Assembly: GCA_008632985.1 (NCBI GenBank) | Contig: QPGO01000125.1 | Location: 124,001-188,000 of the forward strand | Origin: Psammoneis japonica | Taxonomy: Eukaryota | Reading direction: 5' to 3' | Length of the DNA stretch: 64,000 bases | Shown: in pieces, positions 1,800 to 60,261 of the stretch | How the letters are laid out: each line of letters starts with the position of its first letter | Position numbering within the stretch: position 1 is the stretch's first letter | The notes under the pieces: model-generated | What the model was told of the DNA's origin: nothing | Seen by the model: the letters and a program-made list of their open reading frames with translations, nothing else | Databases searched by the model: none | Program-made: the position numbers and the translations under genes

Positions 1800-2539
1800 G
1801 TCTCTGCGGTCTGCGGTAATCTACAATCTTTGCTTCCATAAAGTGAAACAGTGACATACCACAGTAAGTAGCAAGGACGACATCTAACTAATAGGCAGAA
1901 AAGATGATGACAGCAGTGTGTTCTTGATGCATAACGGACTTTCTGCTACACAGAGCACAGGGCAGTCGAAAGTCGAAGCTGGGTGTTGGGTGTCAACATT
2001 TTTTTCGATTTTTCATTCTTCATATTCGTCAATGAATAATCTTCTTCTTTGCCGTTTCCTCCTGTCCGGCAAATGCAACCCTGCGTTATCGTGCTTCCCT
2101 GGGTCAAGCAGAAGATGCGGCCATTGAATTTAGATTATTCTCCCTACTCTCTAGAGCTCGGTGGAGAGAGACTCTACTCTCTAGAGTAGCCGCGGTAGCC
2201 CTAGAGTAGTACCGTAGAGCAAGGGTGACTCACCGATGTACAGGAGGCTTCGAGGTTAATGTTGCCTACAGTACATACCTGCACGGCGGAACGATTATTA
2301 TAGCTAACGGCCCCGACTTGAGAACGATAAAACGAATGATCCTTTCAGAAATATGTCAAGTCTGATAGATAGCTCTAAAGTAACACTACTGTCATTCAGG
2401 ATTCAGAGAGGCGATCTCCTCATTCACACCATACCAGGTACTACAAGACTACTCTAGTTCGACTATCCCTCCCAACTACACCCTACCGTAGATCAACTCA
2501 CACAACCCACAACTACCCAAACACTTGCCTGACCAATCA

Positions 2540-4211
<1,672 letters not shown>

Positions 4212-4825
4212 GATTGGAGCGAATGGAATCTTCACGTTGACTGATAGTAAGGAGAGAAGGAAGTGCTTCCTGCTGCGTGTTTAATGCTTTGGTAAAGAGA
4301 CACAGGCGAGTAGAACAACAGGTGCGTCGTGCCGCAGAAAAAACACAACAGCGTCAGCTCTGAAAACTGAAAATGCGCTGATAAAAAAAATGCGATGTGT
4401 CGGTGCATCGCGCCAAAAAATCCGCGGTGAGCCAATGCGAGCTCGGTTTTTGAAAGCTCGATCTTATGGACGTACCATACGTACGTACGAACACAGACAG
4501 AGACTTACTGGGAAGGCATAATTAAAATTGAATGACCCTCTACCGTCAGTATAGTCCCTATCTATCTCGTGATATTTCTGCCCAAGAGACATTATGACTA
4601 TGTCTCTTCGTTTCTTCCAATGACTTCCGATCCACGTAGGGTACAGTATTATATTTCCGTACATACGACTATCTTTACGACCACAAGACATAATCATTAC
4701 ATAAGCCCTCGTGTTGTAAGTCGCTTCCCATCACACTTTTTTTGTGTTGACTCTCCTTTTTTAACTTGCACACACGTAACCCTCACACAAACTCTCTTTG
4801 GGGTTTGCAAAAGGATATCCAAAAG

Positions 4826-5935
4826 ATGAGATTTCGACGCTTCGGCTGGGCCTTTATGGCTAGTGCAATCGTTCAGTCGGCCTACGCCTACACAAAAACC
4901 GCGTTGTTGAGTAGAGAGGAAGTGGACCAATGCGACCGTTCTGACTACTTTGAGACTAAGGTAGTCATCGATCATGACCTTTTAAACAAGAAGTGGACGA
5001 CCACGGAAGAGTTGTCTCAGCTGGCAGAACTCTTTCGTGATACCTACAACACCATGAATGCTGCTCACCCAGATTCTGAGGTCTGTGACCGCGTCTACAA
5101 TCGTGCAGCTTATAAAGTCGCCGTCAAGCCTCTGCAAATGGTGTACAACCAATACGAAGGTCAGACAGGATATGTTCGTCAATTTCTCTATTATGTAGGG
5201 GGGACCTGTACTGGCTGCGCCTCGAACAGCAGCTTATTTGACGAAGGAACAGGGCGTACCTCTTCAGAACTGAACAAGCTTGAAGTCTCACCGACCTCTT
5301 GTGATTGTCCAGAATCAAAAGACCCAAGTACATCTCGAGGACCTACAGAGGCAGAGTTCAAGAAATCTTTCAAGTCCATCGTCAAAAAAGCCGGCGGAGA
5401 TGGAACTACGCAACTCCAGAATACGGCATCCCTGGAAAGGGTTGTAGAAGTCGAAGGGGACACGTGCAACGACGTCGTCGATCAGTTTTCTACGGTCGTA
5501 TCCTACGAACTGTCCACTACTCCATCCGAAAAAGATCTTGAAGCTGTCCAGGTTGCGTTTGTAAATGGCTTCAACTTCTTGTTGCCAGTTTACTGCGATC
5601 CTATGGTGCACATTGTGGAAAGCGCAACGGCGGTCAGCACCGTGAAACGTTCCTTGAGGAGGAAGCTTGGTGATAGATTGTTCGATAACACGGTTCGTGG
5701 ACGCTGCAGGGGATGTGGATCAGATTCTGGACTCTTCGACGATGGTAGGAGGCTGCAAGAGGACGACAATAAGCGTCGCACTGCCGCAACAAAATGTTTG
5801 TGTTCTCGAAATGCGTATGCGTACACCCCTCCAACAATCCAGGAGTTCGCAGAGAGCTTCAATAGAACACTTATGGCCGCGCGTAAAGATGGATACCTTT
5901 CGGAAGATATTTACTGCATGAGTGTCAACGACTAA
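4826..5935 (+). CDS. Secreted Cys-rich protein of unknown function with an internally duplicated domain
   Basis: Signal-peptide-like start (MRFRRFGWAFMASAIVQSAYA). Two copies of the pattern (Y/F)N...CD...G-x-C-x-GC...LFD...CxC...PT..EF. Paralog at 10828-12665. Confidence 0.8.
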   Translation: MRFRRFGWAFMASAIVQSAYAYTKTALLSREEVDQCDRSDYFETKVVIDHDLLNKKWTTTEELSQLAELFRDTYNTMNAAHPDSEVCDRVYNRAAYKVAVKPLQMVYNQYEGQTGYVRQFLYYVGGTCTGCASNSSLFDEGTGRTSSELNKLEVSPTSCDCPESKDPSTSRGPTEAEFKKSFKSIVKKAGGDGTTQLQNTASLERVVEVEGDTCNDVVDQFSTVVSYELSTTPSEKDLEAVQVAFVNGFNFLLPVYCDPMVHIVESATAVSTVKRSLRRKLGDRLFDNTVRGRCRGCGSDSGLFDDGRRLQEDDNKRRTAATKCLCSRNAYAYTPPTIQEFAESFNRTLMAARKDGYLSEDIYCMSVND

Positions 5936-6375: not shown

Positions 6376-7820
6376 TTTTTTAAAATAGAATATTAAGAGA
6401 GCCTATGTAGAGCGGAAGGGAACAGCAGAGGGAGGCACGGAGGTAGCTGTAGTGACGGTAGAGTAGAAGGGCCGAAGGACACAGGAGGAAGGGCGTTGAG
6501 AGGAAGGTATAGGTGAGGAGGGAGAAGGGAGGGAGGATGTGAATCGGAGGATATGCGTAGAAAGGTGAAGAACAACGTTGTAGCCAAGAGTTTGAGTGGC
6601 CCACTGGGACGGGGAGGCTGTACGGTACTGTAGGTGCTCCCAAAGCGATCGGCGGACAGGCGACACCATGCGAAGTCAGCGGACGGAAGGATTGCAGACG
6701 GAGACGACAAAGCATAGAGGAAGGCGGAGCAGGAGGCAGCAGAGTGACGGAAGTCAGAGGAAGAGGACCAGGGAGGCTTGGGTTGAGAGCAGATGGAAGA
6801 AGACGTAGGACCAAAGAGCAAGTGGTGGGCAAAGCAGCGGAGACTGCCAAGGTGATTGACAGTGAAGGGGAGCAGGAAGATGCCATCGTTGTCAAGCAAA
6901 GAGAAACAACAAGGGAGCCATCAGCAGAGGAAGCCGAGGAACTTCAATCTCGCGCTCGAGTGGTGTGCCTCAGTTAAAATGGGAGAAGAGGGAGCAGGCA
7001 GACCTGGAGGAGGGCGAGAAGAAGCTTGAGGGACGGCAACGTCCACTGCAATGCAATGATGACAGGAAGGAGCGGAAAGGGAGGTGGGAGGGGGAATTGA
7101 AGTGCCGACATCGGCGGGACGGAGGAGTGGGCGGGCGGGGAGCAGGTTGGCAGGCTCGAGATGAACGTCATCAGGGGAGCGACAGAGCTCTGCAAGAGGC
7201 CCCAGGGTTTGGGCCAGGATGAAAACAGCATCTCGGAGGCCATTGGAAAGTTTGGACTTGTGAGCATGGCAACAAGAAAAGGCATGGTCGCCGCAAGCAT
7301 CAAGGATTGCATGGCCACAGGGACAGGGAGTGTTGACAAGGGACGGAGGGAGGACGGGGAGGCAAAGCTTGCAAAGAGCGGCAATGGCGTAGGCATCCGA
7401 AGAGAGACGGGAGCTTGGGAAGCAACGGGAGAAGGAATGAAGAGGAAGGCTTGTGAGCGGAGATGGCAATGAAGGCAGCGAAGATTGCACATCGCAGGAG
7501 GAGTCAGCAAGGATGGAAGCAACTGCTTGCTGTTGACATTCATGGTAGGTGCGGCGAGCCAGGCCAGGAAGAGTGGCCGATTTAACCAGGGCAGCCAAGG
7601 AAGAAGAGGAAAGGGCAGAGGCAGAGGCAAGAGCGGGGGCACAACGACGGAAAAGCACACAGAGACGCAGAGAAGAGCGAGGGTTGGACCAGGGAGATAG
7701 GGAGAGCCGAAAGCAGCGCGGAAGGGAAACAGAAGCACCGGAGGGCAGGCTGACACCGTGCGCAGCAAAGCGGAATGAGCGAAGGAGCGACACCAAAAAG
7801 GAAGGAATGGCGGCATCAGC
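6376..7820 (-). mobile_element. 5'-truncated non-LTR retrotransposon fragment, CRE-like (CCHC knuckle + restriction-like endonuclease), degenerate
   Basis: CPCGHAILDACGDHAFSC zinc knuckle followed by RPADV...IAVDV...LLPFTVNHLG, the PD-(D/E)xK RLE layout of CRE/R2-type elements. Frameshift near 6900-6925. Short A6 tail (T-run 6376-6381). No RT core and no TSD found. Confidence 0.7.
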
Positions 7821-8064: not shown

Positions 8065-9576
8065 ATGGCTGGAGCTTCCAACGGTTTCGCAAATGAGGCT
8101 TCTTCTGTTATAGTTTTATACAAGGTTGTGAATTCCAAGTCGGATGCGGAGGGATTGTTCAATGCCTTTTACATGCCTCGCGGCGATGCTGTAACACTAA
8201 AGAAGGTCAAGCAGAATTGTGCAGCACTTCATTCTTTGAACCCCGCCGGACCAGAGGGATTTCACTGGCGTGTATGTATTGAAGACAACCGTGGAGGAAA
8301 CAGCAGCAGCAGCAAAGCTGTACCGTTTTCGTGGTGGGACATTCAGGACGAGAACGCACGTCTCCCAGTCAAGGAAGCAACGCCCTCTGAGTTGGAGTAT
8401 ATGTTCTTTCCCAAGAGTCAATCTGCTTCCACCAGTAGCACGGAGCACGCCACCAAGGCTGCTAAGGGCGGTTTGAAAATGCTGGGTAAGGCTGTAAATG
8501 CCGTGGTGGATGCGGGGACTGGTGGTGGTGTGGATAGCAGCAGTCCTCGTGTCGGTGTTATTGCCTTTAAGCTGCTTGACATGATCAAGATGCATGATGA
8601 ATTCGATCATAAGCACGGTGGAGCTCATCATGTGCCACGTGCCAAAACTCCCCGTGCTCCAAAGGCTCGGACTGCCCCGCAACGACCAGCTCCCACTCCC
8701 GCTCGTCCCGCCTCACATACCCCAGCAGCTCGTCGTACAACTGCGCCTCCGGCAACTGGACCTCGGCCTTCAGCTCCCCGTCCAGCAGGAAGAACTCCTG
8801 CCGCTTCTCAGCCTCCTCGTAGGGCTACAGCACCAAAACCTGCAGCGGAAGCATCTCTCATGAACTTTGATTCTCCTACCCCTGCCGACCGCAAGGCCAC
8901 TTACAACAAATCCTCGTCCTTACCGTCCAACTTCTCTGACAACGAGACTCGTGCCCAGCGTCTTAAGCGAGAATATGCCCAGAACCAGCAAAAGCAGAAC
9001 CGAGTTTGGGATGATGTGGATCAACGATGGGTTGACGCTAGTGCTCACGGATCGAATCAAGGCAAGAGCGTACCCGCCGCTTCTAGCGCGTCTGGCTCCG
9101 ACAAAAAGGTCAAGGGCATCAAGTTGGATGCGTCCAATGCCGTGGGCAAGTCGGCCTCTGTCCAAGCGGCTGTCAACAAGCGTGTCAATGAAATGAAGGA
9201 GTCTCAGGCAAAGGCGCTTGCCGAAGTGCGGGATCGTGAGAACCAAAAGAAAAAGGAAGAAGCCGAGGAGGATTTGGTGCGGAAGCGTTTGGAACCCAAG
9301 ATCAAGGCTTGGAGTGAGGAGCATGGCAAGAAGAAACAACTTCGTGCGCTCTTGGCTAGCCTCCACACCATTCTGTGGCCTGAGGCCAATTGGAAGCAAG
9401 TTAGTTTGGGTGACATTTTGGACGAATCCAAGTGCAAGCGTTGCTTTCACAAGGCCTCGAGGGTGGTTCACCCCGACAAGACGCATCATTTGGACGCGGA
9501 GAAACGTTTCTTGGCCAAGCGCATTTTTGATGCTCTTAGTCAAGCCAAGACCGAGTTTGATGAAGGTGCCAAGTAG
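8065..9576 (+). CDS. Auxilin-like J-domain protein with N-terminal DIX-like domain
   Basis: C-terminal LRALLASLHTILW...KASRVVHPDK...AKRIFDALSQA is an auxilin-type J domain with HPD. N-terminal NAFYMPRGDAVTLKKVK...GFHWRV...WWDIQDENARLPV resembles the DIX fold. Pro-rich linker between them. Confidence 0.85.
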   Translation: MAGASNGFANEASSVIVLYKVVNSKSDAEGLFNAFYMPRGDAVTLKKVKQNCAALHSLNPAGPEGFHWRVCIEDNRGGNSSSSKAVPFSWWDIQDENARLPVKEATPSELEYMFFPKSQSASTSSTEHATKAAKGGLKMLGKAVNAVVDAGTGGGVDSSSPRVGVIAFKLLDMIKMHDEFDHKHGGAHHVPRAKTPRAPKARTAPQRPAPTPARPASHTPAARRTTAPPATGPRPSAPRPAGRTPAASQPPRRATAPKPAAEASLMNFDSPTPADRKATYNKSSSLPSNFSDNETRAQRLKREYAQNQQKQNRVWDDVDQRWVDASAHGSNQGKSVPAASSASGSDKKVKGIKLDASNAVGKSASVQAAVNKRVNEMKESQAKALAEVRDRENQKKKEEAEEDLVRKRLEPKIKAWSEEHGKKKQLRALLASLHTILWPEANWKQVSLGDILDESKCKRCFHKASRVVHPDKTHHLDAEKRFLAKRIFDALSQAKTEFDEGAK

Positions 9577-10827: not shown

Positions 10828-12665
10828 TCACCAATCTACCTCATCTTCACTTACTTCGGAAACACTTAGCAGTTCCAGATCCTTTTGCGCCAAAGCCTCG
10901 CTATGGTTAAACCATCCCTCGAACTCATGCTCGTACGGAGCTCGTTCAAAACGCGGCTCGAGTGCACAGAAGCACTTTTCTTCTTCTTCCTCCTTTTCCC
11001 TACGCAGCATATGCGGGCTTGTTGACGAAAGTCCTCGAGTGACGGCGTCAGCTGCATCATTGAAGACTCGAGTTCTTTGATTGCAGTCCGTGTTCCGCTT
11101 GGAGCATTTCCCTCTCACCCTGAATTTCAGCCTTGTTTTCTTCTTTCTCTTCACAACTGTTCCTTCCAATCCGCGGTGCTCATCGTATACTTCATCTACT
11201 TTCACCTGCACGTCTTTGACTGTTCGACGGACGGGATCACAAAGTAAGTTGGCCAACCCGTTGTAAGAAAGCCCAAACGCCCTGCCTACCAGTTTTAAGC
11301 TATCCTTGTCCACGTTTTCCATGTTTTCATACTCCACAAAGGCGTACGTTGTGAAGTCCAAGCTTTGGACATTTCTAGGGCAGTCCACTTCCTGAATCTC
11401 AACAACAGCGGTTGCATCATGACCCTCAACCATTTCCTCCGAATCTACCTTGGCCGCTTTTACGGAAGCCTTTTCATCGACCAGCCCTCCACCAGCTTTT
11501 GCTTCTTCTCGCATATCTTCTCCTGTATTCTCCTTGAGCTTCATTCGAGTCTCAGCAGTTTTTATGGCAGCTTTTCTTGCCTCGTCTTCTGCTTCTTTTC
11601 GTTCCTTCTCGGCTTTACTCACGATCTTGTCAGATCGTTTCTGCTGATCCTTCAGTTTCTCTCTCGCCTTTAGGACTTCTTTCTGTGCCTTCTCCAGTTC
11701 ACTCGCCCTTTTTTTACGAATCTCTTTGCTTTCTTTCTCAGCCTTTTCTAACAACTTTGCAAGATCCTTCTTCTGCTTTGCCGAGTCCGCTTCTTCAAGC
11801 GCTTTCTTCGCGTCCGCTTCCTTTTCTTCGGCTTCTCTCACTGCTTTAGATGTTCGACTTTCGACTTCTTCAAGTTTTTTGCTTGCATTCTCTACACCTC
11901 TTTCTACCTCTCTCCACTTTTTCTGAGCTGCCTCTATCTCTTTTTGTGCCTCTGCATCAACCTCCTTTGCTTTTTGGGCCTCTTCTTCGTATTCTTCCGC
12001 CATCTTCATGCTGTCCTTCGCCTCGTCGAGGGAGACACTTTTAATTTCTTTGCGGAAAAATGACAAGAACTCCTTCTCGGTTGGAGCACGATCATTTGAC
12101 TCCTTTGGACAGTCGCAAATGCGATCGGCATCGCCGTCGGTGACTGGCAATTTGTACGTAACCGGCTCGACGAGTAGCCGCGAATTCTGAGGCATGTCCT
12201 TTTTCCAGTGATGGAATGCTAGAGTATCAGCATTACACCTACCGCTGCATTGACCATGAAGTTGATAAAGAATTATTCTTCGAAAGTCAACCTCTCCATC
12301 TACAACCCTCTCGAAGCTTCCCATTGCACGAGCTCGGACGGAATGGACCTTGCGGTAGAGTTTGTCGCAGGGACGTCCCTCCACGGCCTTCTCGGGATCG
12401 TTGAGGCTGATATGTTTCTAATACATGTCGTGCTAGTGCATAGAGCTCAACTTCATCTGGATCCTTCTCCATGTCCTTGCCGTCGTGTTCGATCAGAATC
12501 GACGAGTCAGAACGTTTTGTCCCTCTTGCACACGCGCGCTTCTTTCTCACGTCGTAGGTCACGTGCCTGGCCATTACGCCTTCCAAGCCGTGAATCATGT
12601 CCTTGAACGGTCAATGCGACACCTAAAAGAGATGTCGCGAGCGCTAGGTATAACAAGTATCTCAT
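10828..12665 (-). CDS. Secreted Cys-rich duplicated-domain protein with central K/E/A coiled coil (two apparent frameshifts at ~12510 and ~12410)
   Basis: Signal peptide MRYLLYLALATSLLGVALTVQG. Homology to 4826-5935 continues across frames (VCKRDKTF/DSSILIEHD...ETY/SLNDPEKAVEGRPCDK). Motifs CDCPKESNDRAPTEKEF and CFCA...RAPYEHEF. Confidence 0.7.
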
Positions 12666-12798
12666 GTCAAGACTCGATTTCATTGACGGCAAAGTGTGAA
12701 GTTCTGGAGAGACAATCACTGCTCGCTCTCACACAAAAAGGACGAGGACATGGTGGGGCTTATGAGTACATGGCATCTTGCAGTCATTATGTCCTAAT

Positions 12799-12973
12799 TG
12801 CAAGATCTAGCTTGAGATGACTTGATAAAAGTTGTGGGAGAACCGAGGAGAGACCCCATCATCGCTGATGCAGCCCAAACCTAACGGTTTCCCGTACATC
12901 TAATACGTTAGTTAACACACATATGTCAGAGAGGGCACACTCGGTCATAGAGTACATGTGCCTATCTCATTCA
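12799..12973 (-). repeat. 3' LTR (175 bp)
   Basis: Aligns without gaps to 18221-18395 with 13 mismatches; TG/CA termini. Confidence 0.96.
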
Positions 12974-12985
12974 CTCTTCCCCTCC
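12974..12985 (-). other. Polypurine tract (GGAGGGGAAGAG) of the LTR element
   Basis: ctcttcccctcc on + strand, directly abutting the 3' LTR. Confidence 0.85.
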
Positions 12986-12999
12986 ATGGTGCAAGGAAC

Positions 13000-15900
13000 A
13001 CGCGCACCATTGGAACCACTCGACTAAAATTCAAAACCCACTGCACACGGAGAAGGGAACCCAGACGTTGGGAAGAAACCCTCAACTCCGACACGGCACC
13101 ACACGGCGAATGTTGATTCGCTCGACAACGTGCGGTGCTCGCAGCACCGAAACAGTCCCGTTGGCATGGACTTGCACAATTCGAAACGGACCACAAGCTC
13201 GTTCTTCCAACTTCGAAGGATCCACCGACTTGATTGATGCATCTTGACCAACTAGACAATCGCAGGAATGTCACTTCGCATTCTGTCATCACAGGTTCTC
13301 GTCAATCAACACTTGTCGGTTGGCTTGTGTCGTTGCGAGATCGGAGACAACAGGCAGGTCCAAAATCACATCACGTTGAAACACCAGAGCTCCACTTGAA
13401 ACACCCGCAGACCTTGAGTGGGAGCATCGCAAAGCATGAGAGGCTGCAGCAAGGGCATCGTCCACAATCTGCTCGGCCTGTTGAACATTTAAAGGTGGGT
13501 TGGCAACAACCACAGCACGCAAGACATCAGCTGCCGTCTGGTGCATTCGTTCACAAATGGAGTTGGCTGCAGGATTTCGAGACGTCGTCGGAGCATCAGC
13601 AATGCCCGCTTGATTCAGTGACATTTGGAATTCCCAACCAATGAATTCTCCACCATTGTCATGGATGCATCAATTCGGTCTGGGACAACGAGCCAACCAA
13701 AGGTTGCGAAACTTGTTGGTCACATGCTGAGAAGTTTTGTTGTCAATGCGCACGAGTTCAGTCAATCCAGTGACAGCATCAATGCAAGTGAGAGCGCTGA
13801 ATTCAATCTCTTGATCTTGAATCGGGATCTTCCACGGTCCAATGAGATCAGCTGCCACTTCCATCCACGGAGCTAAAGGCACTTGACGTTGAGGCAACTC
13901 TCCACATCCAGGGCCTGGTTGTTTAAATCGTTGACACGCATCGCAGACAAATTCATTGCAACGTCGCCGCAATGCAGGATGACACATGTGAGTCCGAATG
14001 CTTTCATGCAATTGCACGACTCCACAATGGCCCAATGCACGATGACACCATGCAATGACATCCGGCAACAACGCAGTGGGGGTGCAAATCTTCCAGGCTC
14101 CAGGCGGATCATTCAACTGCAAACGATGACAAATCAGGGGACGATGGTTCACAATCTTGACCACAAACTGCTGCGGATTTTGTTGTCTTTGCTGGTTCAG
14201 TTGGAGGTCTTCGAACTGGAGCTGTTGGATCCTCAATGTCTCAGTGGGATTCGGCATCTCGTCCAGTGTCGGATGATTCAAAAAGCATTCAAACAATTCA
14301 GGCTCGTCGAGCAGAGAGGAAAAGACGGCGTGAGACTCATCAGAAGGAGCAACAGGAGCACGGCAACACTTGAACCTGCAAGCGCCTAACTCCAAATCTT
14401 CCTCGGCCTTGGCCTTGGAATCCAACTTTTCAAAATGAACAATTTTTCCTTTGCGTTTGCTGCTTGGCCCAAGGCTCCTCCCCTCCGAAGGCGGATCCAT
14501 GCGTGGCAGATGAGAAAAACAATCGGCGAGCACGTCATCCTTGCCTTCGACATGCTTAAACGCAGGCACAAAATCTTTGAGGAACAGGCACCAATGAAGG
14601 ACGCGCTGTGCATTCAAAGTGCGAAAGGTGAGATTTTTGTGATCAGTGTGAACAGTGATGTCAGCACCGAGCAGCATCAAGCGAAATTCTCTGAAGCACA
14701 TGACGACGGCCAGTGGTTCCTTTTCCATTGTCGAACAGTTTCGTTGAGCCGTCAAAAGCTTTTTAGACCAACGCGCCACCGGTTTGCCATCTTGAATGAC
14801 AGCGGCGCCCATCTGGCAGTCTGATGCATCGGTGCAAACATGGAATGGCAGGTTGTGGTCAGGGCAGGCCATCAATGCTTCCACCGTGATTGCTGCTTTC
14901 ATTTCATCGAACACTTTCTGACATGATTCCGTCCATTGGAACTGACTTTTGCCTGTCAATTCAGTCAGAGGTGCAAGCAGGTGAGAACGGCGAGGCCACA
15001 TGTTGCGACAACAAGTTGCTGCACCGAGAAACGATCTGAGTTGAGCAGTGTTCTGTGGAGGTTGCATTCGTGGAATCACTTCGACCTTTTTCTTCCACGG
15101 TTTAACACCAGTCGGAGCAAGCCAATGCCCCAAGAAATCGGTTTCTTGAACACACCACTCGCATTTCAATGGATTGGCTTTCAAACCATTCTCTTCGAGA
15201 CGATGTGGCACCTTGTCAAGACGAGAGAGATGGCAATCAAAGTCAGCATCAAACGCTCCAATGTCATCAACATAAGTTTCGACATCCAAACCATGAAGAA
15301 TCTTTTCAACAATGGACTGAGCAACATCTGGAGCTGGCTTCAATCCCACAGCCATGCGACAGCACTGAAACTTTCCGCAGGGAGTTGCAATCGTGGCGAG
15401 CTCTTTGCTTTCATCGTCCAATTCCAAATTGCAGTAGAACACAGTGAGATCCAATTTCGTGAAGAATTTGTAGCCCGCTCTTCGTTGCAGCACATCTTGA
15501 ATGACCGGCAGAGGACAACCCATCGCACTCGACCGTCCTTCTTCGGAGTGACAAAAGTGCCAGCTGCCCATTCCGCAGGTCCACATGGTCGCAGCACGCC
15601 GAGATTCACCAAGTGCTTCAATTCCTTTTTGAATGCTTCTTCATTAACTCGAGCAACAGGAAACGGTTTTGAGTGACAAGGAACAGCGTTTTCATCCACT
15701 TCAAGGTGCACCTTTTCATGAGGACAGTGGCCCAACGTTCCGTCAAACAAGGTCGAATGCTTTTCCAACACCGCTGGCAGTTTCTTCTTTTGTTCTTCCG
15801 TGAGATGGTCCAGATTCCGAACTGCCTCCGCCGGATCCATTGCTTCATGCTTGGCATCGAGCACACAGGTGTCGCATCCGTCGTCGCATCCGTGGTCTGA

Positions 15901-16605
15901 CTCGTCTTCATGATCTTCATCAAATTCATCCATTCGGTCTAAAGCAACACACCAATTGCAGGACTTGGACCAATGACGAGGCTCCTTCATTGGAATTACA
16001 CGGTCTAACCAACGCAGTGTTCTTGTGTCACAGTTCAAATTGAGGCCAATCTTGTCCAAGAAATCTCGACCCAAAATGACATCATGCGCACACGGAGCAT
16101 CGAACACGTGAGCCACACAGCCGTCAATCCTCTTGGTCTTGTCGAATTCCGGCAACGCAATGTCGCTCAGGGCCACCCAACGACCCGACTGGAAAGGACC
16201 TGCAATGGTTTGAAAAGCTTGGACTCCATGTTCGTCAATGGATGGCACGGCTCCTCGAGGTAAAACTTGAGACGAGATCACAGTGTGAGAACCACCTGAG
16301 TCAAACAAGACACGCATCACACGATTCGACTCATGCCGTTGGATCAATTTTGTAACAAGCAGTGCAGATGGGACCAACGCAGCATGCGAGACTTGCGATT
16401 TCATTTTGGGGAGAGGAATGTGACACTCAAACGCATCTTGATCGAACACGTCCCCCTCTTCATTCATGTAATTTTCTGCAGTGTTTTCAAATTCAACAGG
16501 TGACAATTCGTCAGGATTTTCAAAACAGTCAAAAACAAAACATTCATCATTTCTTTCAGGTAAAACACAATCATTTTCATCAACAAATGCTTCTCTCACA
16601 GGCAA
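13000..16605 (-). pseudogene. pol: Gypsy pol (protease, RT, RNase H, integrase), disrupted
   Basis: VLFDSGGSHT protease. PKKDGRVRWV, FTKLDL and YVDD for RT, with a short deletion after RVRWV. TDASD and TDHKNL for RNase H. HHCC zinc finger, DLIGPW, DNGGEF and NSICERMHQ for integrase. Many Tyr->Cys/His changes and several frame breaks. Confidence 0.93.
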
Positions 16606-16710
16606 TTGGGAGCATTCAGCTCCGGAGCATTCAGCTCCTTCTTCTCAGAACTGCCGAGGAAACTGCCGATCTGGCTGAAACCTCGCCACACCTCCACAAC
16701 GTGGAGGGCC

Positions 16711-17900
16711 TCATCCGATCATGTCGAAATGGTGCACGTCACCACGAGGAGCTTCTCGAGCCTGGTTGTCATTGTTCACATTGTCTGCTTGAGCAGCATG
16801 TCCGTCAGCCTGACCTTGGCCTCCACGGTTGTTGTTTTCATTGCAATGATGCTGACCACCACCTTGGTTGCCATTGTTGTTTTGGTGTCCATTGTTGTCA
16901 TTGTTGTCATGACAGGTGCCACGACCTCCTTGGTTCTGGTCACCACGACCACCAAAGCGTCCACCACCTCCACGGCCTTGTCCACGGCCTCCTTGGAAAT
17001 GACCTCCGCCTCGACCTCCACCGCCACGGCCTCCACCTCGACCGCCACGGTTTTGAGGCCCACGACAGTTGGGATTGTTTGGATTGTCATGACACTGGCC
17101 CCACGCATGCCTTCCATGGTGCCACGGGACCGGACACGGGTCATTCGCCTTTGGTTGGCCCTTGCCATCCTTCTTGTCTCGGTCGCCCTTTTTGTCACTG
17201 GAGTTCCCTCCATTGCCATTGTTGGACTTGCGTTTCTTGTTGTCCTGACCATCGGCGAATGCCTTCTCATTGCTCATGCAGGCTTGGATGTCCACCATCG
17301 AGTTCGTAACAAGGTTCTTGCCCGCACGAATGCAAGACTGCTGCCAGGTCAAAGGGAAGGTGCAGAAGATGACACTTTTCTGCTCCTGCTCTGTAAGTTC
17401 AGGAACGGTTCCAGGCAAACGGTTGGTGTGACGAAACAACGTTTCCGTGTGATCAATGTGTGTTTCCGATTCCGCTGAACAAGGCTTTTTGCAAGTGGGC
17501 AAATGCATCTTCATTGTGTCGCGAGCTGTTGGTTTCACGCAGCGCAAATGATGAGCTGAGATGGCCTGATTAAATCGAGCCACCATCCATTGATTCTGTT
17601 GGACACCCGTGGTGACATTTTGCCATTTCGCCTCTGCAGCACCTTGAAGGCGATCCTTGAAAGCATCAAATAATTCTGGTCCGGTGTCACAGTCGAGCTG
17701 TCTTGCCACCTTCCGGAGCCTGTCCTCCACGTGCAACAATGACTCAATTCCATGCTCTCCTGTAAAAATGGGACACATTTTCGAAAGTTTAGCACCATCA
17801 TCAAAGGTTTGAGCGAGCTTCACTTCCTGCAATTCTGAATCCATGAATTTGGTCTTATGCTCAATGAACGCTTTCTCCAAGGTTTCTTGACACATGGCGA
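16711..17900 (-). pseudogene. gag: Gypsy gag-like ORF
   Basis: Upstream of pol in the same orientation. CPVPWHHGRHAWGQC knuckle-like motif followed by RGG-rich and Asn/Gly-rich tail. Start uncertain. Confidence 0.75.
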
Positions 17901-18220
17901 TGAACAATTTCAGCGACCAAACAATCAACAATCCACAAGATGAACGAAACAAAGTGCTCCCAATTGATCCACACAACGAGAACAATCAACAACCAAACAA
18001 GAACAAATTCAATGGCAGCAACACGAGCTTCGAGTTCAAACAAGCGCTGCTCTGAATCGCCAATTTCACGAGCACAACTGCGCGGCGATTCTGATCGACT
18101 TCAAATGAAATTTTCTGCACGCGCTCGCAAATGGATTTTCTCTCTTCTCGATGACACTCTTCGCGTTGTCATGAAACTGACAATGCAATGAACAAGCCAC
18201 AACAACGACTGCAATTACAG

Positions 18221-18395
18221 TGCAAGATCCAGCTTGAGATGACTTGACAAAAGTTGTGGGAGAACCGAGGAGAGACCCCATCATCGCTGATGCAGCCCAA
18301 ACCCAACGGTTTCCCGCATGTCCAATGCGTTAGTTAACATGCATGTGTCAGAGAGGGCACACTCGGTCATAGAGCACATGTGCCCATCTCATTCA
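18221..18395 (-). repeat. 5' LTR (175 bp)
   Basis: Second copy of the LTR, followed on + strand by TSD CTAAT. Confidence 0.96.
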
Positions 18396-19552
18396 CTAAT
18401 TCCTTGAGACATTGTCATTTCATGATGTGGTGTGACATTCATGATTTTACTTGAGGGGGGTCATCCCCGCGTTTATCCTAAAATTACCGTTGCATTTGAA
18501 CAAGGTTTTTCACAGTGTTTATTTTTGAACACAAGAATTGTTCATAGTCACACCCGATCGCGCACGAAAACGAGAACCATCAGCACCGCGACCGAAGCAC
18601 GACGATGATGACAATCATCGACATTTCTCAAAAACGTAGTTTGCCGTCTACCAACTTTTCATGTGCACACAATCTTTGTTACATGACAAACACAAAATAA
18701 ATAAGAGTTGGTAGACGGACCACCTCCGTCACAGACTTATGGCTTGTTGTTTTCACCACGGTGAAGCACGGTGAAATTCAGGAAAAATCATGCAAAACAC
18801 GAGCTATTCGGCCGAATTCGAGCTAAAAAAAGTAGCAACCGACCACCCTTAAAATTTATAATATGAAACCCATAGTCTACTCGTGAATACCGGTATAAAT
18901 GCAGTACCGGTACATACAATGCGACGTGCGTATGTACTTACTTGTACTGAATGTACAGTACAGTAGCTCTGTGACATTCCGATTAAACTATTTTTAAGCC
19001 CTCAATACAGACATTCTCCACCCAATCACATCAGCCTCGCGTCGGAACTCGAAAGGGGAAAGCTCCCTCTAAATCTAGGTAACTCTACTATCTAGTCGTC
19101 GCTATCTCTAGCTAGAAAGTAAGAGCGGACTAGGTGCCGTAGACTACAAGTTGCCCGAGGCCACAATCTGCTACTGTACAGAGACAATCCTTGGGTTCCT
19201 TTCTACTGTACCGTAAAATATTTACTCGTTGGATAGAGGTTGGTCGACAATACGAGAGGGCATCCAACCCGGCCTGGTCCTATGACTAGATCGGGAGGCC
19301 GTATCCTCTCTAGGCCCTCAAAAGCCTAGCTACTCTAGTGTGGGTGGGGACTTTAAGCGGCCAGAAAAACACTCCACGAAAAGGATTAAGTGTCACTCTC
19401 TAGGAAACAAGCCGTTGAACTTTCATTAGATCTCTCCGGCGGTTACTCAAGCAGAAGGAAAGCGACGCAAACGACTCTTTGCTCCTTTCCTCAAAATGGT
19501 GGTTAAACTAGTTACTGCCCCTCCTCCTCTAGATTTCAGCATCAGTGTGCTT

Positions 19553-21229
19553 CTATTTTTGAGAAATAACAGCCGCTACAGGAAAAGGTTCCCGTTTGCT
19601 CAACACCAACACCCGCTTGGAATGCGAAATGTATCCCCGCACGTAGCCCCTAAATATCAAATTGGCTAGGATGCACTCGACCTCGTCCAAATCAATCGGC
19701 ATTCCAAGCCACTTGAACGACGTGGCAACCTGTCCGAGAGGAATCTGATGAGCCCCTGTAATTAGATGCACACGTTTGAATAGATTGCGATAACAAACTG
19801 TTTTGCATTTTTCCAGCAGAAGGTAGGTTCCTTGCCTATAGAGTTGAAACAAATTGTCGGATCACAACGAAAAGACTGAGTACAGGCGAAGCAGGGAAAT
19901 AATCAGTGAAACAGCATACATTCGAAGCACACTTACCGGATGAACAGATCTTGATACTTGACGAGCCCATCGTTGAAGGTTCGTAGATCTCCTTTTCGGA
20001 TCCCTTCTACAAGAGGGACGAATTCATTCAATTCGTACTTTTCCAGCACTGTGCGGGGTAAAGAGAGAATTGGATAAGTCAGCGAAGCTTCTCGAAATCA
20101 CAAAGAAATCACAAACGCTCCGTTAACATACATTTCTGTGTCGGTAATCGGCCTCGTAAGAGCTTGACGGGGACCAAGTACTTCAGGATGCAACGCTTGT
20201 TGTGAGTGGCCTTGGCATGACAATGTTGCAAAGCGTAGCTCAAGTTGGATTCGGCTTCCTTATATTGGTCTTCAAACATGTTGAGACGACCTGCATAATA
20301 CCGAAACGTTACCATTTCACCCATGGAACCAACTTTGTGCAGATTGCGAGATTCAACAGGTCTATAAGGAAGGAGAAATTGATTGGGTTAGATGACGTAC
20401 GCTACTCTTGGAGAGCAATCATTTGGAATGTTGTGTTCTTAGCTTGCCTCAAGAGATTCTTGCAGAGACGTAGCGTGTTTAACCGAAAGTAAGCCGAAAA
20501 GAGTTGGTTGACAATAAACAACACTCCCGCCTTTTTAGAGCCTTCTTCATCCAGCGGAGCATCTGGCTGTAAGTGTGTCAAATGAGCGACAAATACGCGA
20601 GGTCGGCTTTCGTCAAACCACGCAAAGGGTGAGGCGAGAGTTCTACGTTTTGCTCACCTGATATTCTGTACGATCGTTGAGAGTTTTACTGAAGCTTTCT
20701 TGCAACACCGTGACAGCACTCTGAAGCTTGGCTTGGTCGTTGTGACGGCTTTCCTTTGCTTGTTGAGCATCGGCGAGAATGGCAATTTTGTGAGAATTGC
20801 GACACACAACCTCGAGTGCTGGCACCATCCAGTTTCCCGAGCTCGATCCAAACAGGCTGTTGAACGAGGAATGCAAAGTCGACTGGGCTTCGTAGCATTT
20901 GATTGCATCACCCTGCATATTCATGAATCAAGCAATTTAAAGAGGAGTGGGATAAGAGAATTGCGCAACAGCAACACGCACCAGGTTGTAGGTGTCACTC
21001 CAGAGCACACACTTACGGCTGAGGCTGCGAGGTTTGCTTCCAACCACGCCGACAAAACACTGCCCCATTCACCCCCTTCGATTTGAAGAGACTCTTGAAA
21101 CTTGCGAACCTTGTTAGAGGATGAGTGAGAAGACAGTACAGGCGGCAGTTCCAAGGCAGTCGCAAGCTGGTAAGGGTTGTGTGAGCTGAGCGCTGCCTGA
21201 AGCTCTTTCCGTTTCGTTCGCGTATCCAT
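19553..21229 (-). CDS. PCID2: PCI-domain-containing protein 2 (PCID2/Thp1/CSN12-like), multi-exon
   Basis: VTFRYYAGRLNMFED, ILKYLVPVKLLRG, GTYLLLEKCK, DEVECILANLIFRGYVRGYISHSKRVLVLSK, spread over ~6 exons with GT-AG boundaries. Confidence 0.9.
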
Positions 21230-25036: not shown

Positions 25037-25417
25037 GAAAACAGGCATCAAAAGAAGGAGGAAGGAGGAGGTCAATTAATCACAACAGAGTGATTTATGG
25101 TAGCTCCATTTTTTGAAAAGTGGTAATTCCAGCAATAGAGAGTCACAAGCAAAGTTTCCTTTGTAACATTTATTGTTTCTACGTCGCTTCTTCAAGAGCA
25201 AAAAGGTGATCGATCATCATCGAACAGGAGAATGACAGAAACGAACGAAAACAGGCATCAGAAAGAAGGGGAGGAGGTCTAATCCCAGAGTGATTTACGG
25301 TAGCTCCATTTCTTGAAAAGTTGTAATTCTAGTAATAGAGAGTCACAAGTAAAGTTTCCTATGTATCGTTTCATCTTTCTACGTCGCTTCTTCAAGAGCA
25401 AAAAGGTGATCGATCAT
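25037..25417. repeat. Imperfect tandem duplication (~175-bp units at 25037-25217 and 25247-25417)
   Basis: Both copies run gaaaacaggcatca...cagagtgattta...tttctacgtcgcttcttcaagagcaaaaaggtgatcgatcat. Confidence 0.9.
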
Positions 25418-47327: not shown

Positions 47328-47921
47328 GATGGATGATGGATTGGAAGTGAACAGCGATGCGATGCACCTTTTCTTTTCTCTTTTTGTGAGCGGCTCTGTG
47401 GCGTTGGGAAAAGAGGAGGCGAACTGTTATCCTATTCTACGTAGGAACCAGTACATATCTGAGTATGTAGCTGCCTGTAACCTCTCATAATCGGGTAATA
47501 ACTTATGTCTATCATTGAATAAGATATTTGATGTTCTAGTGACGTTCTTGTTGAAGTTGAGTTTATTCAATATATATGTCTGAAGCAATTAATTCAAAAT
47601 TTGGAACTCGTTTAACGGCAAAACATTCTGAATAACGGTAAATAACTGTAGATATCGATAGTCGATCGACGGAATCACTTTCAACGCGTAGGCAGCATAT
47701 GTGATTTCGTATGTAGTCTCATACCAGGAATGCAGTAGCCAACTGATGTTCTTCTGATGTTCTTGTTGAATTTGAGTTTATGCAATGCTCAGATATGAAG
47801 CAAATGAATAAAAATTTGGGCGGCAAAAAAGTTATTCGCGCAAACGTCAAAATAACCGCATGTTTGAGTTTTATTCCATTGGCAGAGCTCCAGACGACAT
47901 CAATGACCACGAACTAGCTAG

Positions 47922-50900
47922 ACTCTGAACATCGAACCGACAGCCAACAATCAAGTTTCGTTTTGTCGGTGCTTCCAGCGCCAGGAGCACTGTTTGTTGC
48001 TGGCACTCAGCCATGTGTCACACCGTGCAAGTGTGGCACATTGCAAAACTGTCAGGAGGGAGATGAGCCAAGCATTTGAAAGACGTGTGTTCGTCAGAAA
48101 AACGCGAATGCTGAGATTGAAGGACATGCTGCATTTGTCCTTTTTCCACCACTGTGCACTTTCTTGCGCAAGAAAATCTGGCTGATTTTCTCCCATCAAT
48201 TTTTTGTTGCTTCATTTTTCAGATCTGGTTGATGCTTTGAAGTGTCAGCCAGCGCCGCTGTTCTTCTTGATTGCTTGGAGCATCTGTGCAAAAAAAAAAA
48301 AGGTTTTGGTCGGAAGAAGCTGATCATGGCTGCTTTTGCTGCACTTTTGAACTTCTTTTTTTTGTTTCTCTTCCATCAAGCCTGGTTGTTTTTGACAACA
48401 ACGGAAGTCGTTCAAAAATGTTGCAAAAGCCGCCACAATTGACACTTTGTGTTGTGTGAGGGAAAAAAGACAAAATCATGTGGAAATGCACAAAAAAGCC
48501 ATGTGAGAGGGTGGTTGGAGCTGCCAACTTTTTGGGAACTCAACTGAAATTTCATCTGATCAAAGGTGCTTTGACTTGCATGGTGAAGAGCGACACCTTT
48601 GACCAGACAACATCTCAGTTGATTTCCAAGAAATTGACATTCCAGCAGGGATGGGCAGAGAGACTGGCAGCAGTTGTTTCTGGCGGGCACTCTTTCACAC
48701 AATTTCTGCACAATGACTCTGAGAGCCACAATGACTCCCGTCATTCCCACCTTTTTCACAGCAGAAAGAGCTCATGCCGGAAAAGAGCAGCACTCTCTAA
48801 CTCCATTTTTCACAACAAAAATTGCAAAAACTGAGACTTCACACAACAAGTGCACTTGATGTGTGGCTGCAGTTGCTTCAAAAAGATGCAGCTGATTTGT
48901 GGTGTGTCAGTTTTGCATTGGGGCTGAAACAGCAGTGCCAAAGTTTGATGAGTGCAGAGCAACTGAGCTGTTTGAAATGCAGAAGCAGGGGCAACAACAG
49001 GGTGTTGGCAATGTGTGAGAAGAGAAAAAAAAGGTGTGTCAAAAACACAGTGAGTTGAAAAGCTGGTCAGTCAGGAGCCCCCCTCAAGAAGCATCAAAAA
49101 CACCATTGCACCAGTCAAAAAAGCCCACTTGCTTGCTGCTGCATTGCGGCCTTCACAGCTCTGACAGCCTGCCCCTTGTTTTTCAGGCCACAGCTCCTGT
49201 GGCATGGGGCCATTTTTGAGGTGTGCGCAATTTGTGATGTGAGAGACATGAAAAAAATCTTCTTTGATTTGGAGCTCAACTGCCCCATGTGGAGGGCTGA
49301 CTCAGCACCAAACGCAATGATGCACAGAAAATTTTGCAATTTGTCCAATGTTTTGCACAGCATGAGAACACACCTTGAGCCAAATTTTGCTTTGCTCAAA
49401 CTGGAGGGGACCCCTTTCTCTTTCTGAAGATGACAATGCATGCACTGTGCTCTCATGCACCAGCACTCTTGTGACTCTCTTCTTGATCATCCCAAGATCA
49501 AATTGCTGGGCCCTGTGCACATGCACTCACACACTGCATCACTTGTCCTTGTTCCTGGCAAATCACAAAAGGCCCAGGCATTCTGCACAAAACTGTGTCA
49601 AGAGCTGGCACTCTCCTGCATCACCCCAGCTGCAGCGAGCTCTGCCTCTTGCACCAAGCTCAGTGCCAAATGTGCACAAAAAGGCAGGTGGTTGCAAAGC
49701 TTGTTGTTGACTGTGGCTGTGGGACAATTTTTGAGTTGTCACACCATTTTTCTCTGTGCAACATTCAGTTGGCTGCATTGTGCACTGCTCACTTGATGCT
49801 CAAAAAGTGCGAGCTGGTCTGTCCACAACAAAAGGGCTGTCACTCCAAGCTCATTTGAGGGGTCTTTGTGAAACCACATGATGACACATGGCTTGGTGCA
49901 CAACAAAGTTTTTGCACACTTGGCACAACTTTGGGTGGCAACCAAATGTTTGACCCTGCTTGTGATGTGGGTTCTTCATTCACAGCTGGAAGCTGCACAA
50001 TGACCACACCAGCACATCTGCTCATCAGAGAAGAAGCGCAAGTGTGTGGACATGCACAAAATGGCTGTGCTCATTTCTGCCCCATGCTTTGCACAGCTGT
50101 TGCATGGAAAGCTTGCATTGCAACATGTTTGCTGGTGTTTTCCAGCTGTTGGCATGGCCCATGTTGCATGCTCTCCCACAACATGGGCTGCAGAGCTCCT
50201 GACAGGTGCAATCTGCCACAGATTTGTGTTTCATTGCACCATCTTGTGGGTGCAGTGTGCCTCTGTTGTTTTCATGGACAACTCTTGTGGGGCACGGACA
50301 ACAGTCAGCTCCACATTCAGCAACTCTTTGTTCTTGTTTGACAAGTGCCAAATGCTCTGCAATGCACCATTCTGCTTGCGTTTTTTCAAAATGGCCCAGC
50401 TGGGGGTGACACCAGCCAGCTGTCTGCTTCTGCAGCAATGTTGTGCTGAGAGAGACTGTTTCATCTTGGTTGCAACCAGCTGTTTGGCTGACATTTCTGG
50501 CCCTGCAGAAAAAAAGCTTCTGCAGAGGTCAAGGCAGCTTCTGGCATTTCCTCAACTTTTGGGCCACACTTGGTTTCCATGGGGTGGTTGAGAGGGCCAA
50601 GACAACTCAGCATGCGCCCACCACAACCAAGCTGTGTGATGATGTCCCCCCCAGCATGCCACAACTTGTTGGACCCCTGTTCCTTGCATGCTGTTGTTGT
50701 GTGTGCAAACACATCATGGTGTGCTTGGTGCGGAAGACTTCACATGCAAGGTCATCAGTGCACACCAGCACACACCAGCCAAGGATGATGGACCTGAATC
50801 ATTTGGACAGCCCAGCTGAGCACAAAACCAAGCTTTCTCCAACAAAAAGCTTCTGGCCAACTGTCTTGCAACAAAGCTTCTCCAAGTTGACGCGTGAGCC

Positions 50901-53640: not shown

Positions 53641-54087
53641 TTACCCTCTGGGTTGCTGTTTTAGTGGGCATGAGCAGTGGTTGTGACAAGTTTCATCTGC
53701 AAAACATGATGGTTTGAATGTTTTTGAGCTTTTAAAGGACAACCGTCTCGGAAATGCATGGATTTGAAATGGGCAGCTGCATTTCGGTTGGAGGGGAGGA
53801 GCCCCCCTCTGCTCGATTTGCCTGGTTGTTTCACTTTCGGTCAAAAGAGATGCTATTTTTTGCTTTTTGAATTTCACCACATAGTCGATGATATGGAACA
53901 GTCGTCCTCTGAGCGAGAAAACAATTAGCACCAATCAGATCCGTGTTGTAACATCTCTCATCATGATGTACCGTAGTTCATGGATGTAATGCAAGTCAAG
54001 CGGGACTTGTGAGTCACTTGCTGATTGCTGCAATCGGTGGTCTGCTCTGTCTTGTTTGTTTACAGTTATTCAATTTCTAACGCTAAC

Positions 54088-57034: not shown

Positions 57035-57297
57035 AGTGCCAGTACCTATCAACAAACTGCAAATAGCCTGTTCTCCTGCATATATTCCACTCTGTAACGT
57101 CGTTGAACAAGCACAGCGAGGAAGAGAACACAAACGCAGTCGTGTGATGTGGTTGGACGGAAGTGCTGAGTGCTCGAGCAGAGTGAACTTCCAAAGCAAA
57201 TTTGTCAATTTGTCGGATTCCGGTAAAGATTTCATGCTCGTGGCTGGTTAACGACAAGCCCATAGCCCAATCTCTTTGTCTGACTTCGAGCCAAAGT

Positions 57298-57415
57298 AAG
57301 CTAAATGGTTAGTGTAAATCGTTAAGTGTCATTTCCACTTCGACACAAAGAAAGCTAAATGGTTAGTGTAAATCGTTAAGTGTCATTTCCACTTCCATAC
57401 AAAGACAGCTAAATG
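57298..57415. repeat. Tandem repeat, 54-bp period, ~2.2 copies
   Basis: aagctaaatggttagtgtaaatcgttaagtgtcatttccacttc at 57298 and 57352; partial third copy at ~57407. Confidence 0.92.
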
Positions 57416-57839
57416 CTTAACGGTAGTGGTCAGATTTCAAAATCTGAGCAATACAGAAATGTCAATGATGAATAAGGATTTTAGATTGCTTCTGCCGTAA
57501 ATATCATTACGCCAATGCCACTAATGAATTCACAAATGAATTTGTATTCCATCCTTTTCCTGAACTTTGATCTATCGGCATTTTCGATACGAGTGCTCGA
57601 CGCGATGACAATGAGGCATGCTTGTATGTGTCATGGCCATAAGCTGTGAGGCGTACCGTCACATTTGGATTGAACTCGGGGATCTTGATGTCGAAAGTAG
57701 CCATTTGTTTGACATTCGTGATTTTTCATCGCCCACAAACTGGGATTTCAACTGAGTCGAGTTGATGTTGGACGTGTTTCAAAGCACTGCGTTTGATGAA
57801 ACAATTGAGGGCTCTGGAATTATGGCATTTTATGCCATG

Positions 57840-59850: not shown

Positions 59851-60261
59851 TAGCTTACGTAAGTAGAATTCTAAATAGGAAATGTATTGATACCGGTTTT
59901 GTCGGTGGTCACCCTCTTTTTGATGAGTTGCCTTCGCGCGATCTTGCAATCTGATGAGTTGCATTCCGGAGTGTTCTTCTACTACTACTAGCTAGTAGTA
60001 GTAGCTAGTAGATCATCTATTCTTCCTACTAACAGAAGTCTCGCTCTCTACTAGTAGTAGTCAAGCTATTGCGCTTCTCTAGAGAGCTAGATCTCTCTAG
60101 ATGGGCATGGAAAAGTCCTAATTGTAGCTAATAACATACTTTTTCTTCTTTACATACTATTTTTTGTCGGTCGCTGTCTCTCGAAAGGGAGAGACTGGGT
60201 AGTATGTCTGTACGGTAAGAACTAGTGTTCTATGAAAATGCCTACTACTCTCTCTATAGAC

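Follow-up and report, generated by a model that had tools for sequence, protein, structure and literature searches.

The window analysed here, the whole of one 64-kb stretch of DNA, contains a Ty3/gypsy-type LTR retrotransposon on the minus strand (12799-18395), two further blocks that are almost free of TA dinucleotides, and a number of genes. One gene lies at 10828-12324 on the minus strand, beside the left end of the element. Another encodes a MiaB-type tRNA methylthiotransferase (60262-62541, minus strand) that is extended by about 250 aa at its N-terminus. Its protein shares 62-72% identity with named diatom proteins, and wherever the source names of the 120 listed relatives give an organism, it is a diatom; two listed relatives (P0150 and P0219) bear a rotamase domain (PF00639). 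A relatives search with the NatB subunit gene of the window returned no named matches. The parts of the retrotransposon and its immediate borders are as follows.

12794-12798, no strand: left copy of the target-site duplication CTAAT, identical to the 5 nt at 18396-18400
12799-12973, minus strand: left LTR, the 3' LTR of the minus-strand element, nearly unmutated (12 TA, TpA o/e 0.94)
12974-12985, minus strand: polypurine tract GGAGGGGAAGAG (given on the element's strand), beside the 3' LTR, read from the sequence
12974-18220, minus strand: element interior, a TA-depleted domain (28 TA in 5247 nt, TpA o/e 0.08)
13292-13669, minus strand: integrase core frame, in frame with the RT frame, ending at the TGA at 13670-13672
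13673-15586, minus strand: RT, RNase H and integrase zinc-finger frame (Pfam RVT_1, RT_RNaseH_2 and Integrase_H2C2)
15340-16605, minus strand: protease frame (Pfam Asp_protease_2)
16711-17985, minus strand: gag-like frame ending in TGA, with no Pfam match
18221-18395, minus strand: right LTR, the element's 5' LTR, hypermutated (3 TA, TpA o/e 0.29)
18396-18400, no strand: right copy of the target-site duplication CTAAT, the same 5 nt as on the left, with normal TA density further out

The element has LTRs that start with TG and end with CA, a short target duplication and the domain order PR-RT-RNase H-IN, all typical of the Ty3/gypsy type. Its relatives bear rve, RVT_1, RT_RNaseH and Integrase_H2C2 domains, and the named ones come from diatoms. 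Coding capacity is broken at four places. The protease and RT frames share 246 nt but are read in different frames, so at least one frameshift must be present in the element. Two stops separate the gag-like frame from the protease frame, namely the TGA that ends the former and a second in-frame stop between the two. The fourth break is the TGA at 13670-13672, where the alignment consensus of the relatives has Arg.

A repeat comparison placed the direct repeat at 12799-12975 and 18221-18397 (175-177 nt), and both LTR copies begin with TG and end with CA, at 12973 and 18395. When 12799-12973 was aligned without gaps to 18221-18395, 13 of 175 positions differed (7.4%). The first-pass annotation had described these differences as transitions that all fit a change of TA to CA or TG, without indels or transversions, and its list of LTR positions was reproduced exactly (10, 28, 84, 97, 99, 100, 103, 107, 120, 121, 125, 155 and 165). 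At nine sites the left LTR has TA and the right LTR has CA (seven sites) or TG (two sites). The other four positions form two adjacent pairs (99-100 and 120-121) with CA on the left and TG on the right. Each LTR contains six CpGs, all in common, and the two LTRs become 100% identical when written in purine/pyrimidine coding. All 13 differences are thus transitions between A:T and G:C that fall at TpA steps, and 0 of 147 LTR positions outside the 14 inferred ancestral TA steps differ.

This spectrum is not expected by chance. When 13 random transitions were placed on either LTR, with each LTR used as the base, none of 200,000 trials gave 12 or more sites fitting the TA/CA/TG scheme, and the maximum was 11. 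The TA state is on the left copy at all nine single sites (two-sided binomial p = 0.004). As an approximate control, since metagenome contigs may hold assembly artefacts, we compared terminal-repeat pairs of related elements on such contigs. There were 26 pairs, of which 12 were identical and were left out together with that of contig L048 (a 4.5-kb repeat); the remaining 13 contained 154 substitutions, including 23 of the TA/CA/TG type and 58 transversions. Three of the metagenome contigs (L003, L008 and L048) carry 2.9-4.5 kb of the element head to tail, at 100%, 100% and 97.5% identity. Tandem elements, circular forms and assembly artefacts are all possible sources of these repeats.

The two LTRs of a retrotransposon come from a single template and carry the same sequence when the element integrates. 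Both LTRs here belong to one insertion, since they are flanked by the identical, intact 5-nt CTAAT, and the fact that they differ at 13 sites, all within the TA scheme, bears out the earlier proposal that the mutations arose after insertion. In the right LTR, 11 of 14 inferred ancestral TA steps have been lost, and on the plus strand the changes are seven T to C and four A to G. Both strands were therefore hit, as is also evident from the occurrence of both Tyr to Cys and Tyr to His replacements in the interior. The earlier proposal also held that the rate was far above background, and this agrees with TA steps that are nearly saturated beside zero ordinary substitutions between the LTRs. The TA process was close to saturation before ordinary substitutions appeared, as indicated by the 147 unchanged non-TA positions and by a CpG o/e of 0.83 in the interior. 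It follows that an LTR divergence of 7.4% grossly overstates the age of the insertion, as had been suspected, because the LTRs have no difference outside TA steps. Dating by LTR divergence is invalid in genomes where such a process operates.

The left LTR sequence is supported up to position 12930 by a contig from run X2 that is anchored in the unique left flank and covers 12300-12930 with zero differences, although this run may be the assembly's own data. The doublet sites (12897-12898 and 12918-12919) are the only places in the left LTR that look mutated. The first-pass annotation had explained them as ancestral TAs hit once in each copy, on opposite strands, and this is to be expected where 11 of 14 TAs were lost in one LTR. 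If the doublets were ancestral CpGs, the same two of eight CpGs would have to be hit in both LTRs (1 in 28) with the other six intact. If the doublet at 99-100 was once TA, the ancestral LTR had a TATA-like run at positions 97-100 (12897-12898 and 18317-18320), which is now changed in both LTRs. It is a speculative thought that this run may have been a promoter element.

In order to assign a direction to the changes, we compared the TA content of the element with that of the window and of related elements. TpA o/e is 0.62 in the background of the window (50.9 kb), 0.08 in the interior of the element, 0.29 in the right LTR and 0.94 in the left LTR. In the interior, CpA (1.55) and TpG (1.39) are enriched. 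All 77 related elements from metagenomes have a whole-locus TpA o/e between 0.39 and 1.08, so the depletion does not characterise the family, and none of them has a TA-free run longer than 486 nt, compared with 3605 nt in this window.

The protein alignments point the same way. At 25 columns where Tyr is conserved among 38 long relatives, the window retains Tyr at 3 and has Cys at 13, His at 6 and another residue at 3. We read the replacements as TAY to TGY (Cys) and TAY to CAY (His), which makes 19 of the 25 columns A:T to G:C transitions like those in the LTRs. In a second alignment, Cys occurred at conserved Tyr columns in none of 40 relatives, and most of the conserved tyrosines are still present in each of these (between 11 of 14 and 25 of 25 covered columns). 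The replacements that follow in frequency in the window are I to V (8), D to E (6), V to A (5) and L to P (4), and three of these (I to V, V to A and L to P) are the codon changes expected from TA to TG or TA to CA. The composition of the RT frame is shifted accordingly, with Tyr at 0.5% compared to 3.4% in relatives and Cys at 5.5% compared to 1.9%. An interior poor in TA, relatives with normal TA content and Tyr codons turned into Cys or His codons indicate that TA was lost in the lineage of this copy, the direction that the first-pass annotation had favoured over a RIP-like gain. The TA state of the right LTR matches that of the interior, and the left LTR looks unmutated. The polarity of the 13 LTR sites themselves is deduced from the interior, from parsimony and from the doublet argument.

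Within the window, neither BLAST nor a k-mer search in purine/pyrimidine coding turned up other copies of the LTR or the element, and an exact 22-nt word from the LTR had no match in the metagenome contigs. Elsewhere the family appears to be numerous. Depth was 2000-5000 over the element and about 61 over unique flank, which corresponds to roughly 45 diverged copies; these values come from contigs of a public run matching the window, possibly the one from which the assembly was made. The other family copies differ from the window by transitions at 1328 places and by transversions at 269. Among the 40 listed of the 1607 differing places, all of them outside the LTRs, the window has CA or TG where other copies have TA at nine, CpG where others have TpG or CpA at eight, and TpG where others have CpG at four; at none does the window have the TA. 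The TA-bearing copies are a minority at eight of the nine. This fits a family in which most copies are saturated, but it fits a TA-poor founder as well, and it is not in itself proof of polarity.

The TAs that survive follow a context rule. In the element, 27 of 31 lie in TAA/TTA, as do 3 of 3 in the other two blocks (30 of 34 in total), compared to an expected share of 38% from the window background or 43% from the relatives (p about 1e-7 to 1e-9). In an additive, per-strand rate model, which fits all ten tetranucleotide classes, relative hit rates by the base 3' of the adenine were 2.5 for T, 1.5 for C, 1.0 for G and 0.3 for A (likelihood ratio p = 3e-7). Retention counts alone do not separate this 3' effect from its mirror image on the 5' side. 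The reading by the 3' neighbour is favoured because each of the three plus-strand TAA sites lost from the LTR (positions 28, 84 and 103) was hit on the other strand. We also considered a sense-strand bias, as Tyr to Cys outnumbers Tyr to His (13 versus 6) and the LTR sites divide 9 versus 4, and set it aside as confounded with the 3' preference. Tyr codons are TAT and TAC, so the preference would produce an excess of Tyr to Cys by itself.

Two more blocks in the window show the same depletion.

47920-53641, no strand: second hypermutated block (2 TA in 5722 nt; TpA o/e 0.01, CpG 0.17, CpA 1.90, TpG 1.84)
57992-59807, no strand: third hypermutated block (1 TA in 1816 nt; TpA o/e 0.01, CpG o/e 0.14)

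CpA and TpG o/e range from 1.76 to 1.97 across both blocks. The left edge of the second block is sharp (47919/47920), the last TAs before it being at 47915 and 47919 and the next one at 48798, and its right edge lies between 53642 and about 53744. The third may start near 57835, as the TAs at 57846 and 57991 are in TTAA. It contains internal repeats (58659-58784 versus 58803-58926, 93%; 59195-59323 versus 59631-59756, 86%) that are alike to this degree only in purine/pyrimidine coding; the copies of the first pair differ by 21 transitions and 15 transversions and those of the second by 33 and 25, with many CA/TG doublets. None of the 64 open frames of the two blocks (43 in the second block) matched Pfam at E <= 0.01, and below this cut-off there were five rows at chance level (E 0.012-0.032) over the same 64 frames. 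The longest frame of the second block had a single match in protein searches, a bacterial DUF11 repeat protein, which was judged spurious. Both blocks look to us like older targets where CpG decay is complete as well, and the second probably represents the burnt-out remains of an old insert of mobile or foreign DNA. A poly-A run lies in the second block near 48290-48300, and a simple repeat rich in TAG/TAC (59970-60065) lies past the right edge of the third.

Depletion is confined to these three domains, with TpA o/e of 0.01-0.08 compared to 0.62 in the background and with edges that are sharp to tens of bases or better. By TA density the host DNA is spared, and the second and third blocks have no recognised domains. 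TA-free stretches at 6976-7389, 9085-9356 and 20688-20892 were considered and dismissed as ordinary sequence, as only about eight TAs would be expected. Tandem arrays occur in sequence of normal TA content at 25086-25417 (132-nt copies at 200-nt spacing, 91%) and 57283-57419 (a 54-nt unit repeated 2.5 times, 91%). Hypermutated elements drop out of homology-based annotation, as the second and third blocks show, and purine/pyrimidine-coded comparison recovers such copies. Domains of this kind can be located with an index of TpA/ApT below 0.1 together with (CpA+TpG)/(ApC+GpT) above 1.5.

Milder cases may exist elsewhere. A 608-aa relative from an independent assembly source (P0071) has 1.5% Tyr, 3.6% Cys and 4.1% His, and at 11 conserved Tyr columns it has Tyr at seven, Cys at three and His at one; this protein may come from a copy hypermutated in part. 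In one related metagenome locus (L010), the terminal repeats (1-247 versus 5298-5544) differ by 12 substitutions, all transitions, of which four are TA-type, one is CpG-type and seven are of other kinds, and in another (L053) five of eight substitutions between the terminal repeats are TA-type. Both loci are possible milder examples.

The borders of the TA-poor domain within the element are asymmetric. On the right, the boundary falls where the 5' LTR meets the CTAAT duplication, whose own TA survives. On the left, it coincides with the inner edge of the 3' LTR, beside the polypurine tract and without a gradient; the domain begins at the tract itself (12974-12985), and the next TAs are at 13025 and 13253. 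Near its inner edge the left LTR keeps TA steps in highly mutable contexts, which counts against our preferred explanation. Transcript-guided models were rejected because hits in the 5' LTR begin at its 11th base, yet U3 and R of the 3' LTR were spared. One idea is that the promoter region of the minus-strand gene at 10828-12324, about 470 nt away, shields the left LTR. This is simpler than the alternative, which concerns the asymmetry only and supposes that hypermutation struck both LTRs before gene conversion, with the LTR of an unmutated copy as donor, replaced the left one. The many family copies could act as donors and the boundary is abrupt, but conversion needs a TA-rich donor that is identical at all 147 non-TA positions, and the two CA doublet sites look like the left LTR's own hits. 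We consider it unlikely.

Three explanations would replace mutation after insertion toward TA loss altogether. In the classical direction of RIP, the element would have inserted in a TA-poor state and the left LTR would have gained nine TAs by C to T changes at CpA/TpG. This needs the same number of events (13), is compatible with the minority of TA-bearing copies at eight of the nine such places listed, and could draw on the DNMT4 proteins of some diatoms, which group with fungal RID according to the available part of PMC9998398. It would however require a second, opposite process limited to 175 nt, in a genome where the CpA/TpG-rich interior next to it stays at a TpA o/e of 0.08. Conserved Tyr codons show loss of TA in this lineage, the six LTR CpGs are untouched, and a TpA o/e of 0.94 in the left LTR lies within the range of the relatives. 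We therefore give this direction hardly any probability. Editing before integration, either ADAR-like A-to-I conversion in RNA of the element or deamination in the course of reverse transcription, with the changes fixed on insertion, could have passed on part of a family-wide loss of TA, and ADARs typically prefer a 5' U/T (bioRxiv 10.64898/2026.01.13.699255, available part). Nevertheless, LTRs that share one template should match at integration, and here they differ at 13 sites with both strands changed within one LTR (seven T to C and four A to G on the plus strand of the right copy). ADARs prefer a 3' G, which is unlike the order T > C > G >> A found at the 3' side here, and they are known only from animals. 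Such editing is very improbable as the source of the pattern.

The third explanation is an artefact, in the form of a chimeric assembly of a family of about 45 copies or of modified bases at TpA that were systematically miscalled. The family is indeed highly repeated, the runs have no record of their sequencing platform, and none of the contigs listed spans the whole element. A chimera is nonetheless made unlikely by the matching 5-nt duplication and 175-nt LTRs that abut unique flanks, and the flank-anchored contig agrees with the left LTR up to 12930. That 57% of sampled 31-mers are present in run X1 contigs, the longest of which is 315 kb, points to accurate reads. The other two blocks, moreover, show real CpG decay and diverged internal repeats, and P0071, a relative that may be partly hypermutated, comes from an independent data source. 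An artefact thus appears highly improbable, and we return to loss of TA in the inserted element.

Taken as described, a local and very fast process that converts TA to CA or TG after insertion has very probably acted on this retrotransposon. It would act on chromosomal DNA and on both strands, over the 5' LTR and the whole interior, and the same process together with slower CpG decay would have erased TA from the other two blocks of the window. We know of no well-established enzymatic route to A:T to G:C transitions other than adenine deamination. The most likely mechanism is an enzyme that acts in a marked, silenced domain and deaminates the adenine of 5'-TA-3' steps to inosine; for this mechanism, which is deduced from the pattern of changes, we hold the chances for and against to be about balanced. 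Inosine would be copied as G, giving TA to TG on the strand that was hit and TA to CA as seen from the other strand. The nucleotide that follows the adenine would set the rate (T > C > G >> A), and TAA/TTA steps would survive for that reason. Such changes would create no new TAA or TAG stops and would remove Tyr codons (Tyr to Cys or His) and TA-containing signals, so that the element could be crippled through the loss of these codons and signals even though long open frames remain. Any candidate enzyme must reproduce this fingerprint, in which only TA steps are hit, on both strands, and TAA is refractory. A natural DNA adenine deaminase would be of interest for base-editing work.

Several known systems resemble this pattern in part. 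Repeat-induced point mutation in fungi likewise disables repeated mobile DNA through transitions in a local dinucleotide context, with inflated LTR divergence and distorted dinucleotide indices. RIP acts on duplicated sequence, and the family of the present element has roughly 45 copies, a figure that applies to the first of the three domains. RIP changes CpA to TpA, which adds TA steps, makes the sequence richer in AT and introduces stop codons. The pattern here is the reverse, with an 8- to 60-fold depletion of TpA, enriched CpA/TpG, a slightly higher GC content, Tyr codons lost and neither TAA nor TAG stops generated. Fossil ADAR or APOBEC editing in animals also leaves clusters of deaminase-type transitions in retroelements, and ADARs favour a 5' U. 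These enzymes act on RNA or single-stranded cDNA, before integration and on one strand, which predicts identical LTRs, whereas here T to C and A to G changes are found on one strand, both strands were hit, and the LTRs differ at 13 sites.

Decay of CpG in methylated transposons accounts for the CpG o/e of 0.14-0.17 in the older blocks and also yields CpA and TpG, but it cannot remove TA. The two processes are separate, or proceed at very different speeds, because in the young element CpG stands at 0.83 and TA is gone. Diatom transposable elements are CpG-methylated, and DNMT4 proteins related to RID are present in some diatoms; the available part of the source for both (PMC9998398) describes no mutation pattern with loss of TA.

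The closest parallel is the chlorarachniophyte Bigelowiella natans. In mutation-accumulation lines of this alga, an integrated giant virus and virophage underwent about 1000-fold TpA to CpA/TpG hypermutation, coding sequences depleted in TpA were enriched in reverse transcriptase and DDE domains, and the authors propose an ADAT2-like adenine deaminase (Mettrop et al. 2026, bioRxiv 10.64898/2026.01.13.699255, available part). In the literature searched, this chemistry is described only for B. natans in that 2026 preprint, with nothing for diatoms or retrotransposons, and the available part of its main text mentions neither diatoms, LTRs nor retrotransposons. As far as that part goes, the two cases share changes that are almost only A:T to G:C and all at TpA, a restriction to foreign DNA and a rate far above background, and clusters poor in TpA and rich in CpA/TpG occur elsewhere in the B. 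natans genome. They differ in the host, which is a rhizarian there and most likely a diatom here. According to the same part of the preprint, the viral targets in B. natans keep many TAs (Rho 0.45, with virophage TpA above the genome average), whereas TpA o/e here falls to 0.01-0.08. The events in B. natans were seen in mutation-accumulation lines, whereas here the LTR pair of a retrotransposon proves that the changes came after insertion and serves as a built-in before/after control for hypermutation. Set against the available description of B. natans, the 3' neighbour rule and edges sharp to the base are features visible in this window.

If the retrotransposon was altered as we propose, a process described in 2026 from one rhizarian alga would extend to a second major lineage and to retrotransposons. 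Tentatively, and with somewhat less assurance than we attach to deamination in this element, we suggest that diatoms and chlorarachniophytes share a RIP-like defence, in which a natural DNA adenine deaminase acting at 5'-TA-3' with the 3' order T > C > G >> A is aimed at silenced mobile DNA and outpaces ordinary substitution. In that case a shared deaminase defence would be old within the SAR group, and many algal blocks of 'unknown' sequence that are TA-free and rich in CA/TG would be burnt-out targets of it.
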